Shown: positions 14,689-32,608 of the stretch, one piece after another
Numbering within the stretch: position 1 is the stretch's first letter
Layout of the letters: each line of letters begins with the position of its first letter
Source: a virus
Lineage: Duplodnaviria; Heunggongvirae; Uroviricota; Caudoviricetes
Direction: 5' to 3' (one strand)
Length of the DNA: 37,027 bases
IMG/VR virus record: IMGVR_UViG_2909303794_000007
Position numbers and translations under genes: made by a program
The notes under the pieces: generated by a model
Databases searched by the model: none
Told to the model about the DNA's origin: nothing
What the model saw: the letters and a program-made list of their open reading frames with translations, nothing else

Positions 14689-14895
14689 CTACTCTCCCCG
14701 CGCCACCTTACGACGGTCCTCTCTGATTTTGAAATACAGGTTAGTCAGATACGTCAGCAGGCCAAACAGCAGACTCCCCAGCACACCTATCGCCACCCAC
14801 TGGGACGGAGAGACTTTGTCCAGCAGCTGCAGTAACCAGTATCCCGTCCCCACCGCTGACGTGGTGTATGACACACCCGTTGTGATTTTTTCCAT
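14689..14895 (-). CDS. S: Class II holin / pinholin (S21-like)
   Basis: 68 aa, [68 protein letters not shown], closely matches the phage 21 S pinholin; two transmembrane segments. Confidence 0.85.
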
Positions 14896-15150
14896 CTGAT
14901 GTATGTCTCCGTCACCGCCGACAGAAAATGAAAGTAAAGGAAAACAAAAAAGCCGCCAGTGTCACCCACTGACGGCCAACGCCGGGAGCCGTGATTATGG
15001 CATTCAGGCTCTGCTAAAAATGCCAGATAACATTCCGGCCTCCCCCGATTCAGGTTATAAATGACACAATATCTTGACAACATCCGTCACTGTCTGTCAG
15101 AAAATGTACTGCCATATAGAAGCAACATGTGAAGTACATCTATCCTTTTG

Positions 15151-15193
15151 AGCCAGCACCTCTCCACCGAAAGTCAGTGCTGGCTGTTTTTTT
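15151..15193 (+). terminator. Plus-strand rho-independent terminator hairpin (module 1)
   Basis: agccagcac...gtgctggct stem followed by T7. Confidence 0.5.
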
Positions 15194-15300
15194 CCTTAAT
15201 AAAGCATCTGTAACTGAAACAATCCGCATATTGATAATATATTGACAGGCATCATTGCTGTCTGTGAAAAATAAGTCTCTACAAACATATAAGGCCTTTT

Positions 15301-15342
15301 AGCCAGCGTCTTCTTTTTCAGGTCAGTCGCTGGCTTTTTTTA
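15301..15342 (+). terminator. Plus-strand rho-independent terminator hairpin (module 2), abutting the esterase stop codon
   Basis: agccagcg...cgctggct stem followed by T7. Confidence 0.5.
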
Positions 15343-17193
15343 TTATGCTGCCGGTGCATTTATCTCCAGCACCAGACTTTCTATCTCAACGCCATACGCT
15401 GCATTTTTTGTAACATCCGTCAGCGTCAGCGCATTCAGTCCCAGTGTCAGACTGTCTTTTATAACCTGGAATGCCGGGCCAGCCACTCCATTCAGTTTCG
15501 GAGTAACCGTGGCACTGCCGGCGGTGAACACCAGCTCCAGCGTCTGCCAGTCGTTACCGTAATCGCCGAACTCCCCCAGCTTCGTGTTTCCGGCTTTCCT
15601 GTGATGCATCAGATTCACTCTGCCGTCAGTGGTCTGAGTGAAGTACGACATCAGGAACGGATTACCGGTACCCGTCATCGCCACACCATCAGGAACGGGA
15701 GCATCCGTATACAGATAAATCCCCAGCCCGAACTGATTGTTGGTCAGTGCGCCTGACAGGCGGAACTTACAGGTCAGTCTGCCGCCCTGTGTCAGCAGGG
15801 TAATTGCGTCATCCACCGGATGCGTCAGGGACCAGGTTTTATTGCTCTGCTTGGTGATCTTAAATACACCATCTGACAACTGAATTCCGCCATCCTTAAT
15901 GCTCCAGCCCTGCGCAGCAGCCTCTCCGGCTGCCGGCAGCAGGGAGATTGTGCGAACCGACGTATCTGCAGACGGACCCGATGGCGTGTTGCCGCCGGGC
16001 GAGGGTTTGATTTCCGGTGCCTTACCACTGATGAAGGCTGAGGTGCGCCCGGCTGCGTTCAGAATAGCGGTTGCCAGACGATCCGGAATAATGCTCCTGC
16101 GCGCCCATGAACTGAAATGTGTCGGGCGGTTTGATGATACCTGGTTTCCATTCGTTCTCGATGCCGCACCGTAATATCCTGATGCCGGAATATCCGGATC
16201 TTCTGCCGGCGCGTTAGTGGCGGTATTGACGCCGTTACCGTCTGTCATGAAGGGCACAAAATAAACGCCCTCACTCTCCCTGTTTTTATACCCGCCGTAC
16301 ACGGTGTCGTACTGGGTAGCGTATGTATTTTTCCAGTAATACGTCGTGTCACCACAAATCCACGGCACATCTGCAGCACTGCCACCATGGCACTGCGCGT
16401 TAAACACGGAGAGGTCAGCACGAAACTGTGTCAGCATGGCTGTAAACAGCGCAGGTTGCTGTGCGTGGGTGGCGGCGCTCATGTCAAACTCTCCCTGCAT
16501 CCAGCACACCGCCAGCAACACATTTTTCGGGTTCTTCTGTAATGCAGCTTTAGTGCGCGCAATCAGGTCCTGATATAACGGTTTACCCACACCCCAGCGT
16601 GCCGAATCCTGGCTGGCCCCCGTGTCCGCACTGAATGTCCCCTCAGCGCCCTGGGTGAATGCAGAACCACCACGACAGCATGGTACCAGCAGGATCCCCG
16701 CGTTATTCGGGATATACGGAAGCAGTTTTTTGGCAATATGTAAGCCCTGGCCGACACAGCCGTACTGCCCTTTGCTCAGGTCTGCCTTCGGATGATTCAG
16801 CGTACTCATATCCTGCACATCATGCAGGCAGTGGTCGGCCGGAATAATATCGTTATATCTGCAGGCAGCCCCACCCGGCGTAACTGTACTGCGGCGCGCC
16901 AGCTGTTTAATGCGCGGATCCGGAGCATCGTATGAATCCGGAAGCGGAAGCCCTTCCCCGTAAGCCATTGCATTGGACTGCCCGGCCAGTACGATGACGT
17001 AGTACCAATCCGGCTCAGTTGCACCACTGACCACCACATCACCTTCTGCTGCAATCGCCTGCATCAGGGTATAAGGGGTTATGGCCACCGGACTACCAAA
17101 CGGCTGCCAGCCCTCTTTCAGTTTGTGTGTCAGCTTTTCCGCAAGGTCTGACGGCGACGCCGCCCTGACAACATCATAATGTTTAATCGACAT
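15343..17193 (-). CDS. nanS-p: Prophage sialate O-acetylesterase (NanS-p-like; DUF1737 N-domain plus SASA/NanS esterase domain plus C-terminal extension)
   Basis: 616 aa; YYVIVLAGQSNAMAYGEGLPLPD...CCRGGSAF...CWMQGEFD... matches E. coli NanS (YjhS) as I recall it. Sits where Stx phages carry this gene, downstream of the toxin locus. Confidence 0.8.
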   Translation of the reverse strand: MSIKHYDVVRAASPSDLAEKLTHKLKEGWQPFGSPVAITPYTLMQAIAAEGDVVVSGATEPDWYYVIVLAGQSNAMAYGEGLPLPDSYDAPDPRIKQLARRSTVTPGGAACRYNDIIPADHCLHDVQDMSTLNHPKADLSKGQYGCVGQGLHIAKKLLPYIPNNAGILLVPCCRGGSAFTQGAEGTFSADTGASQDSARWGVGKPLYQDLIARTKAALQKNPKNVLLAVCWMQGEFDMSAATHAQQPALFTAMLTQFRADLSVFNAQCHGGSAADVPWICGDTTYYWKNTYATQYDTVYGGYKNRESEGVYFVPFMTDGNGVNTATNAPAEDPDIPASGYYGAASRTNGNQVSSNRPTHFSSWARRSIIPDRLATAILNAAGRTSAFISGKAPEIKPSPGGNTPSGPSADTSVRTISLLPAAGEAAAQGWSIKDGGIQLSDGVFKITKQSNKTWSLTHPVDDAITLLTQGGRLTCKFRLSGALTNNQFGLGIYLYTDAPVPDGVAMTGTGNPFLMSYFTQTTDGRVNLMHHRKAGNTKLGEFGDYGNDWQTLELVFTAGSATVTPKLNGVAGPAFQVIKDSLTLGLNALTLTDVTKNAAYGVEIESLVLEINAPAA

Positions 17194-17507
17194 CGAATTT
17201 CTCCCGTGTACAGGAACAGAGTTAAAAAGCCGGAACCGGAATCAAATCACAGGATGACCATCTGCCAGTGGCTGGTCGTAAAAAAAAGGCCGCGCCATGC
17301 GCAGCCGGAAATAAAGGGATAACGATGATAGTTTGAGAAAAACAGAAATAACACTTTTGTGGCAAAGCATGGTGCCGGGTGCCTCCCGGTGAATTCAGTA
17401 CCAGCACCTGAATCCGCGATTATCCCATATACCTACTCGCTGATTGCCCCTCCGCACAGGGGGATTCACCATGCAGAAGTGTTTTTAATAAACAGCAAAC
17501 AAAAAAA

Positions 17508-18273: not shown

Positions 18274-18350
18274 TGGCGCGTTGTAGTGGAGTCGAACCAC
18301 TGACCGATTGCTTAGAAGGCAATTGCTCTGTCCGGCTGAGCTAACAACGC
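18274..18350 (-). tRNA. tRNA-Arg (anticodon UCU), phage argN/argO-like
   Basis: Reverse complement GCGTTGTTAGCTCAG...ATTGC-CTTCTAA-GCAAT...GGTTCGACTCC...ACAACGC-G-CCA: cloverleaf with anticodon loop CU-UCU-AA, T-arm GGTTCGACTCC and a 3' CCA. Confidence 0.85.
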
Positions 18351-19798: not shown

Positions 19799-19874
19799 TG
19801 GTGGCCCTTGCTGGATTTGAACCAGCGACCTGGCGATTATGAGTCGCTCGCTCTCACCACTGAGCTAAAGGGCC
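19799..19874 (-). tRNA. ileZ: tRNA with anticodon CAU, Ile2-like (phage ileZ-like)
   Basis: Reverse complement GGCCCTTTAGCTCAGTGGTGAGAGCGAGCGACTCATAATCGCCAGGTCGCTGGTTCAAATCCAGCAAGGGCCACCA closely resembles E. coli tRNA-Ile2 (ileX/ileY). Confidence 0.85.
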
Positions 19875-24194: not shown

Positions 24195-25283
24195 ATGCAA
24201 ATGCAGCATCTGATGGTTGGCTATCCTAAGTACTACCAAACGGCCGATTATGCGTTGAGGCTTTCAGTGATGGCTGATATAGCAACAATGAGAATGAAGG
24301 CTCTGCACTTCTGGGATAAACACGGTATTTCTGCAGCTTCTGAAGCCTTTGGCGTGTCCTGCCGCACGCTTTACTGGTGGCGTCAGTTACTGAACAAGGA
24401 AGGACCTGAGGGGCTAATCCCGCACAGTAAGGCACCTCTGGTGCGACGAAAAAAACACTGGCATCCCGATGTGCTGAAAGAGATTCGACGCCTCAGGACA
24501 GAGCTGCCGAACCTCGGTAAAGAGCAGATTTTTGTTCGCCTGAAGCCCTGGTGCGAACAGCGCTATCTGGCCTGTCCGAGTGTTTCCACCATCGGCAGAA
24601 TGATCGCTGCCGCACATGATAAAATGCGGATGATACCTGTGCGTCTGGGATCGCGGGGGAAGGCACTGCTTGTCAAAAAGCGGTCTGCCAAACCCCGCAG
24701 GCCAAAGCACTACCGCCCGGTAAAGACAGGTGAGCTCATTGGGATGGACGCCATTGAGCTCAGAATGGGCGAACTGCGTCGCTATGTCATCACCATGATC
24801 GACGAATGCAGCAATTACGCGCTGGCGCTGGCTGTGCCGTCACTCAACAGTGATATCGTCAATCACTTCTTCAGCCGCGCAGCCCGGTTGTTCCCGGTCG
24901 GTATCAGCCAGATAATCACAGATAACGGAAAAGAGTTCCTGGGAAACTTCGACAAAACGCTGCAGGAAGCCGCTATCAAACACCTCTGGACCTATCCCTA
25001 CACGCCAAAAATGAACGCTATCTGTGAACGTTTTAACCGGACGTTAAGAGAGCAGTTTATTGAATTTAATGAGATTTTACTCTTTGAAGATCTGGCGCTA
25101 TTTAACCAGAAGCTGGCGGAATATCTGGTGCTGTATAACAGCAAAAGACCCCACAAGGCGCTCGCACTAATGACGCCCGTGGAATATATTTTAAAAGAGA
25201 ATAAAAATTGCAATATGTGGTGGACCCATACATCTCCTTGCCTTTCGGCACGTAAGAGGCTAACCTACGTTTGTGAAGCATAG
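24195..25283 (+). CDS. DDE-type transposase/integrase (rve superfamily, N-terminal HTH; IS481-like single-ORF layout)
   Basis: 362 aa; N-terminal HTH region, central ...IITDNGKEF... and C-terminal ...YNSKRPHKAL... typical of the integrase core domain. The only plus-strand gene in a minus-strand block. IS ends not identified. Confidence 0.65.
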   Translation: MQMQHLMVGYPKYYQTADYALRLSVMADIATMRMKALHFWDKHGISAASEAFGVSCRTLYWWRQLLNKEGPEGLIPHSKAPLVRRKKHWHPDVLKEIRRLRTELPNLGKEQIFVRLKPWCEQRYLACPSVSTIGRMIAAAHDKMRMIPVRLGSRGKALLVKKRSAKPRRPKHYRPVKTGELIGMDAIELRMGELRRYVITMIDECSNYALALAVPSLNSDIVNHFFSRAARLFPVGISQIITDNGKEFLGNFDKTLQEAAIKHLWTYPYTPKMNAICERFNRTLREQFIEFNEILLFEDLALFNQKLAEYLVLYNSKRPHKALALMTPVEYILKENKNCNMWWTHTSPCLSARKRLTYVCEA

Positions 25284-25689
25284 ATTGGGCCTCAGATTAA
25301 TGTTAAGCGTCTTGCAGGACGCGTAATGTTAACTGGGGCTTTTCTCTGTCTGCCTTACGGTGGCATGCCCGAGGCAGACAGCCTCAAGCACCCGCAGCAA
25401 TTCTACTTAACTCTCGCTTTACCGCAAACCGTTTTTACCCGATATGGGAATTCCCATATCGTAATGAATTCAGTTCCCTAGTCGATCCATCAAAAACACA
25501 ACCAGGCAGTAAACGCCCACAACAGCAACAACAGCCAGCGCACCTTCCATTGCCAGTGATATATCATCCGACATATTCCCTCCTTTGGTGTTAATCCCGG
25601 CGAACGTTTTTACCCTCACCGACAAATAACATATACTAAAAAAGCGATAGCCATAGCAACGCCTGTAATTGCAAATGCTTCAGGCCAGT

Positions 25690-32552: not shown

Positions 32553-32608
32553 TTTCTGGTGACGTTTGGCGGTATCAGTTTTACTCCGTGACTGCTCTGC
32601 CGCCCTTT
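32553..32608 (+). ncRNA. dicF: DicF small RNA homologue (cell-division-inhibiting sRNA)
   Basis: tttctggtgacgtttggcggtatcagttttactccgtgactgctctgccgcccttttt matches DicF as I remember it (3' intrinsic terminator ggcgg...ccgcc-U5) and lies immediately upstream of dicB as in Qin. Confidence 0.6.

Follow-up and report, generated by a model that had tools for sequence, protein, structure and literature searches.

The window analyzed here, a stretch of 37,027 nucleotides of viral DNA taken at its full length, contains a gap of 447 bp (14896-15342) between two late genes on the minus strand. On one side lies a 616-codon ORF (15343-17193, minus) that RefSeq annotates, at identical loci, as a sialate O-acetylesterase of the SASA family (NanS-p type), and on the other a 68-codon ORF (14689-14895, minus) annotated in RefSeq as the class II holin S. 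Within the gap two modules, here called unit 1 and unit 2, are found on the plus strand, and the esterase gene is convergent with both of them. No RNA gene is annotated at this locus in the RefSeq and phage records inspected.

Several other RNAs were recognized in the same prophage. A sok antitoxin RNA (25227-25393, minus; Rfam, 112 bits) implies a hok/sok module in the early region; in strain PV15-279 the corresponding site carries an annotated Hok/Gef gene. The antisense sRNA DicF gives a full-length Rfam match of 76.7 bits at 32554-32605 (plus). Two tRNA genes (18277-18350 and 19802-19874, both minus) lie downstream of the Q region, an arrangement shared with Stx-type phages. Between the tRNA genes and the esterase there are no stx genes, and the matching RefSeq locus holds TerB-family and DUF3927 genes.

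The earlier note on this DNA had described two plus-strand modules in the gap between the esterase and the holin, and every element that it listed was located on that strand. The promoter-like block of unit 1 (15074-15108, plus), whose promoter function is putative, consists of TTGACA (15074-15079), which is a perfect -35 hexamer, CTGTCTGT (15090-15097), containing a TG at 15095-15096, and, directly 3' of the latter, the A-rich block CAGAAAAT (15098-15105). CATATA follows at 15113-15118. The intrinsic terminator (15151-15193) is built from the hairpin arms AGCCAGCAC (15151-15159) and GTGCTGGCT (15177-15185), and comprises a 9-bp GC-rich stem, a loop region of 17 nt, and a G followed by T7 (15187-15193). 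Unit 2 repeats this arrangement, with a promoter-like block at 15242-15275 (plus) made of TTGACA (15242-15247), CTGTCTGT (15258-15265) and GAAAAAT (15266-15272), CATATA at 15286-15291, and a terminator at 15301-15341. The arms of the second hairpin are AGCCAGCG (15301-15308) and CGCTGGCT (15328-15335); its stem (15301-15311 paired with 15325-15335) has a single U.U mismatch, and T7 (15335-15341) ends 1 nt short of the esterase stop codon. Since U-tracts are present on the plus strand only, the orientation of the units is fixed.

Local alignment of the two units gave a score of 32, compared with 10.4 +/- 2.0 for shuffled sequences (z = 10.8, with 0 of 3000 shuffles reaching 32) and with 17.5 at most for alignments to 374 other window segments. 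The pattern TTGACA-N10-CTGTCTGT is matched exactly at just two places in the 37-kb window, and at three when up to two mismatches are allowed (0.26 expected), and AGCCAGC-N(10-30)-GCTGGCT is found exactly twice (0.00 expected). It had also been argued that the stems are kept by compensatory changes. This argument is weaker than stated: one base pair has indeed changed on both sides (A-U in unit 1, G-C in unit 2), but the outer 7 bp are identical and uninformative. Among 19 sequence variants of the units the remaining stem changes are one-sided with pairing kept, and the stems are near-invariant within each unit type. The conclusion of two sRNA genes is nevertheless right. CATATA, which had been listed among the shared elements, is present in both units, but it falls within the RNAs, and its distances to the other blocks are not equivalent; it is therefore neither a positionally conserved element nor a -10 region.

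On the late strand, a hairpin with a T-run had been noticed just upstream of S, and it is indeed there (stem 14977-14951, followed by TTTTTGTTTT). It belongs to a structured region with two hairpins at 14941-15046 (minus; fold -45.7 kcal/mol, z = -3.6), the second of which is a strong intrinsic terminator; the record of phage 434 annotates a terminator at this place. Judged from its sequence, the element most likely stops transcripts that are not Q-modified before they enter holin S, and it could in addition be a separate RNA. It is kept in the PasC locus of prophage PP5 of E2348/69, which lacks the holin and has an ISEc13 transposase gene on that side. We also observed a weak divergent promoter-like site (TTGTCA-15-TATAAC, minus, ~15080-15054) overlapping the -35 hexamer of unit 1.

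Unit 1 is PasA, base for base the published sRNA. PasA was described in EPEC E2348/69 by Pearl Mizrahi et al. (2021, Sci Adv; PMC8550237), who reported its size by Northern, its Hfq-dependent stability and its expression under virulence-activating conditions, together with RIL-seq partners that include core-genome, T3SS and bfp genes. Their Table S6 places PasA on the minus strand of NC_011601.1 with a single start at 743499 and two ends, the major one at 743415 for an RNA of 85 nt and the minor one at 743264 for an RNA of 236 nt. The 85-nt major form (NC_011601.1 743499->743415) is 100% identical to 15109-15193 (plus) of the window, and the Northern probe given in Table S6, GCCAGCACTGACTTTCGGTGGAGAG, is fully complementary to 15160-15184. 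Aligned with 15109-15344, the 236-nt form shows one mismatch, and it ends at the terminator of unit 2. Moreover, the whole 447-bp intergenic region is 99.3% identical to the pasA region of prophage PP2 in E2348/69.

The published seed of PasA, GCCAGCACCU (Fig. S5 text of PMC8550237), is located at 15152-15161 (plus), where it overlaps the 5' arm of the terminator, an overlap that was termed unusual in the preprint by Zhu, Shabalina & Storz (2026; 10.64898/2026.05.13.724894). According to the same preprint, in lambdoid prophages pasA and pasC are directly flanked by the sialic-acid esterase gene and the holin/lysozyme genes, and PasD, a relative of STnc100, is encoded beyond the esterase. An Rfam STnc100 match of 101.5 bits (17331-17503, minus) lies just upstream of the esterase in the window, which is the place of PasD and the position of PasD/EcOnc13-type sRNAs in general. 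Unit 1 and PasA thus share the exact 85 nt, the position between esterase and holin on the opposite strand with the same flanking genes and orientation, the terminator stem-loop with its U-tract, and the seed, and the long form maps here as well; only the host prophage differs, the context here being of the EHEC type. Identical copies of the locus were found in O157:H7, O145 and O111 genomes.

The RNA of unit 2, about 66 nt long (15276-15341, plus), is of the EcOnc51/52 type of Hfq-bound sRNAs and forms the 3' module of the 236-nt PasA form; its predicted fold has an energy of -16.5 kcal/mol (z = -3.9). EcOnc51 and EcOnc52 were reported as orphan Hfq-CRAC peaks in EHEC Sakai by Tree et al. (2014, Mol Cell, Table S2; PMC4104026), and are given as EHEC homologues of PasA in PMC8550237. 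They carry catalogue numbers and no other name. In Table S2 both are marked with a Rho-independent terminator, with a Northern result listed for neither. EcOnc52, from prophage Sp4 of Sakai (1181998-1182075, minus), corresponds to 15276-15353 of the window and runs through the unit 2 terminator, with a 2-nt gap in the loop and one inserted base before the T-run. These differences set both peaks apart from unit 2, which they otherwise resemble, including in their position against the esterase stop. In Sp4, an IS629 element has replaced everything upstream of the equivalent of ~15221, so that unit 1 is gone and the promoter-like block of unit 2 is kept, and the transposase genes of IS629 are oriented away from unit 2. 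As the EcOnc52 peak maps to a prophage lacking unit 1, Hfq-bound unit 2 is thus found where PasA is absent.

The assignment of EcOnc51 to unit 2 of Sp12 is probable and depends on a coordinate shift. The coordinates in Table S2 of Tree and co-workers belong to an older Sakai record, and direct look-ups in NC_002695.2 mis-assign peaks. HnrS (EcOnc10-12; Poudyal et al. 2026, PMC13502914), which has three identical copies, served to calibrate the shift and gave ~+138 at 1.95-2.24 Mb (Sp10, Sp12); after correction by this value EcOnc51 falls on unit 2. At 1.18 Mb, near Sp4, the shift is ~0, because EcOnc05, EcOnc08 and EcOnc21 fall correctly upstream of the esterase, around the STnc100 match. Tree et al. 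list EcOnc51 with 77 nt and a signal of 1.09 million, and EcOnc52 with 78 nt and 1.03 million (PMC4104026). Such near-equal lengths and signals are as expected, since identical copies are multi-mapped.

In the EPEC RIL-seq data of PMC8550237, an entry 'pasA.E2348C_0688.IGR' on the PasA strand was listed by the authors as a second automatic entry of 'PasA*' and not as a separate gene. It is listed with a 7-nt U-tract and five interactions, and has the value 1 in columns without headings that we interpreted as the fraction as second RNA. In its chimeras with escD, the reads on the sRNA side (RNA2) cover 743267-743294 of E2348/69, corresponding to 15314-15341 of the window, that is, the terminator of unit 2. 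In these data unit 2 is the sRNA-like partner of escD. Predicted duplexes of unit 2 or PasA with escD were no better than those of shuffled sRNAs (261/500 and 141/500, respectively).

Taken together, the gap very probably represents the pasA locus, carried by a prophage of the lambdoid, Stx-phage-like kind, and two adjacent sRNA genes of the same orientation, PasA and EcOnc51/52, are placed in it opposite the late operon. The earlier note had proposed either two tandem small-RNA genes antisense to the late operon or mere promoter/terminator cassettes; the former holds, and the latter is not needed. On identical or near-identical sequence, both RNAs, their Hfq binding, the Hfq-dependent stability of PasA, the long form and the RIL-seq partners have been published (PMC8550237, PMC4104026). 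Unit 1 would accordingly produce the 85-nt PasA, an Hfq-dependent RNA acting in trans by base-pairing on core-genome and virulence mRNAs, and unit 2 would produce a second Hfq-bound RNA of about 66 nt from its own promoter-like block. A leaky PasA terminator would give the 236-nt read-through RNA with unit 2 as its tail, in a PrrH-like manner. Both 5' ends would arise from the TTGACA-N10-CTGTCTGT-A-rich blocks.

The promoters should be viewed with some caution. A sigma-70 consensus scan called neither of the two TTGACA blocks because their -10 regions match poorly, and we place the -10 region with confidence in neither unit. Both the 5' end of PasA (15109) and that of EcOnc52 (15276) come 4 nt past the conserved AAAAT, and this speaks for start or processing sites that are equivalent. 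In the preprint by Zhu, Shabalina & Storz the 5' end of PasA is attributed to cleavage of a longer transcript (10.64898/2026.05.13.724894), and TTGACA may thus not be the -35 hexamer of the mature 5' end. The 5' cleavage of the preprint and the single start with two 3' ends of Table S6 (PMC8550237) are in no obvious agreement on the long form. With respect to the independence of unit 2, the peak is seen in Sp4 without unit 1, and a canonical promoter was not called by the scan. We infer that PasA and unit 2 are tandem paralogues, the latter diverged and with a putative promoter of its own.

The relatives of the locus were collected with a pattern scan of viral contigs, which returned 120 stretches, of which 85 were listed; the listed matches and four reference loci were taken in. 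Among these there are about 40 real loci, the other stretches being single matches in unrelated contigs. The matches listed comprise 19 distinct unit sequences of four types, namely PasA, PasA-2 (the type of Sakai Sp12), PasC and unit 2. Also among the matches listed, unit 2 is found at a distance of 167-169 bp in 25 of 25 intact PasA or PasA-2 loci, PasC loci have a single unit in 13 of 13 cases, and unit 2 stands alone only at loci cut by insertion or rearrangement, or on plasmids. When PasA is compared with PasA-2, 11 of the 42 positions of the 5' half are different and none of the 43 in the terminator, and this divergence of the 5' half agrees with the description of PasA-2 in the preprint (10.64898/2026.05.13.724894). 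Between PasA and PasA-2 loci there are zero substitutions in the spacer, the unit 2 promoter and the 5' part of unit 2.

PasC, from prophage PP5 of EPEC E2348/69, resembles both units in different parts. Like unit 2 it adjoins the esterase stop, and its terminator matches that of unit 2 at 37 of 40 positions compared with 33 of 40 for PasA, whereas its promoter block and 5' half are like those of unit 1 (30/36). We considered whether unit 2 might be a variant of the 78-nt PasC and rejected this, since the tails agree (37/40) but the heads are only ~30% identical, so that the 5' parts are unrelated; moreover, PasC loci have one unit and the present locus two, and no exact PasC match exists in the window. 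There is modest support, from sequence comparison, for the view that PasC may represent either a deletion to one repeat or an ancestral single unit.

Of 5426 complete E. coli genomes, 677 contain unit 2, at 2302 places in total, and 691 contain unit-1-type heads, at 2840 places. Among the matches listed, no annotated feature lies under the places of unit 1 or unit 2. About 12% of complete E. coli genomes carry the locus, in several copies each, and almost all of these are EHEC/EPEC-type strains. When one genome per species across GTDB was scanned for the promoter block, only Escherichia albertii had a true tandem locus; the other 16 matches were single, which is about the number estimated to occur by chance. 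The tandem is also found in deposited phages, namely 22 Stx1a phages, YYZ-2008, H-19B and phage 434, the last of which, a classic and non-pathogenic laboratory phage, carries PasA and unit 2 at 99.7% identity (OL657226.1 45304-45589).

Unit 2 could alternatively be only a 3' extension of PasA produced by terminator read-through, with its TTGACA block being a decayed relic of duplication. We consider this unlikely. It agrees with Table S6 of PMC8550237, where unit 2 comes under 'PasA*', with an unchanged start and 236 nt as the minor form, and with the weak -10 region of unit 2, where no promoter was called. However, the 78-nt Hfq-bound peak in Sakai Sp4 comes from a prophage in which unit 1 is deleted and the IS629 genes point away. 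Plasmids argue in the same direction, with unit 2 present at ~100 plasmid places and unit 1 at 7. In the one plasmid copy examined (pRM8385-1, 68049-68205) the homology begins right after the T-run of PasA and includes the promoter block of unit 2, the RNA with its terminator, and 90 nt of the esterase 3' end, without PasA. The plasmids that carry unit 2 are of ~91-96 kb and are found in O103 and other STEC strains, where unit 2 adjoins uilS and IS66. Finally, the promoter block of unit 2 is invariant across the variants, though these variants were chosen by that pattern.

A further possibility is that PasA and unit 2 act in cis, as antisense RNAs to the late transcript of esterase and S, and would tune the esterase, the holin or the timing of lysis through pairing or through convergent transcription; as the explanation of the locus we find this rather improbable. 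The units do lie inside the late transcription unit on its opposite strand, which makes them perfect antisense partners, and late-strand RNA antisense to the 5' end of PasA forms RIL-seq chimeras. PasA motif sites in RIL-seq include the 3' ends of the esterase genes E2348C_0688 and E2348C_1246 (PMC8550237). In the window the PasA seed 8-mer CCAGCACC recurs at 15366-15373 (plus), inside the esterase coding sequence and 213 nt downstream, so that the esterase mRNA carries its complement 20-30 nt before the stop codon. On the other hand, lysogens contain PasA in abundance at a stage when late transcription is shut off, and the majority of its partners are encoded in trans (PMC8550237). A cis role would, of course, be compatible with the trans role of PasA.

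The hairpins might also be plain terminators or insulators of convergent transcription, and the RNAs functionless by-products. The curated record of phage 434 marks all three hairpins as terminators only, with no RNA gene, and the hairpin of unit 2 adjoins the esterase stop. Yet the U-tracts are on the plus strand only and cannot terminate esterase transcripts, and plus-strand U-tracts need plus-strand transcription to act on; the RNAs are, in addition, Hfq-bound and Hfq-dependent, and form many specific chimeras. Consequently, we regard this reading as very improbable. To a small protein we give hardly any credence: the earlier note had stated that no ORF exceeds ~15 codons, and both a 38-codon GTG ORF (15129-15245, plus) and a 30-codon ORF (15196-15288, minus) do exist, but the former starts within PasA, crosses unit 1 and reads through the PasA terminator, which makes it not credible as a gene, and neither is annotated in the RefSeq and phage records inspected.

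The locus itself is already documented as PasA with the EcOnc51/52 module. What the present analysis adds to the literature examined is only the reading of unit 2 as a diverged tandem paralogue, constantly present alongside PasA, and this refinement is a modest one. In EPEC, few accessory-genome sRNAs are as highly connected as PasA. Unit 2, which has about the same spread as PasA, has been folded into PasA in the literature, and treating it as a separate paralogue would alter the counts of copies and targets in the PasA/PasC family as well as the account of its evolution.

The two units were compared with sRNA systems that are already known. Rfam 15 holds no family that matches the locus, either at the gathering score in the whole window or at E values up to 10 in 14850-15400, where the weak matches (snoRNAs, Bacillus ncr982) are noise. 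AgvB and AsxR (RF02702/RF02703), which gave no match at the gathering score in the window nor at E = 10 in 14850-15400, are likewise short Hfq-bound sRNAs of Stx and related prophages, located in the late region antisense to the late operon, and they too have a variable 5' part and a conserved 3' part with the terminator. As the identity of the units they were rejected, since they do not match and their place is beyond the esterase, in the interval that separates it from the moron. AgvB and AsxR are anti-sRNAs, and the likeness of PasA and unit 2 to them is one of architecture and position. HnrS (EcOnc10-12, PMC13502914), a multicopy prophage sRNA of 66 nt, was considered as a candidate on account of its size and copy number, and was dismissed, since its sequence differs and does not occur in the window, and its own locus is downstream of Rz.

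A parallel in architecture is offered by PrrF1/PrrF2 with PrrH in Pseudomonas and by OmrA/OmrB in E. coli, which are adjacent paralogues on the same strand, each with a promoter block and a terminator. Their sequences are unrelated to those of PasA and unit 2, and the promoter of unit 2 is putative. Adjacent paralogues in the same orientation, as in PrrF1/PrrF2, are found here in unit 1 and unit 2 (z = 10.8; 167-169 bp apart at 25 loci), and a read-through RNA that spans both units, as PrrH does, has its counterpart in the published 236-nt form at 15109-15344. In the preprint of Zhu, Shabalina & Storz the copies of pasA are stated not to be products of tandem duplication, and are contrasted with OmrA/B and PrrF1/2 in this respect (10.64898/2026.05.13.724894). 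We give an even chance to the wider hypothesis that unit 2 is a third member of the PasA/PasC family, separately promoted and with its own targets, that it forms a PrrH-like tandem pair with PasA, that PasC is the one-repeat version of this pair, and that a cis role may be added. If this is true, PasC, with its unit-1 head and unit-2-like tail, would be either the result of unequal recombination between the repeats or the ancestral state, and the tandem pair would contradict the statement of the preprint, placing pasA beside OmrA/B and PrrF1/2.
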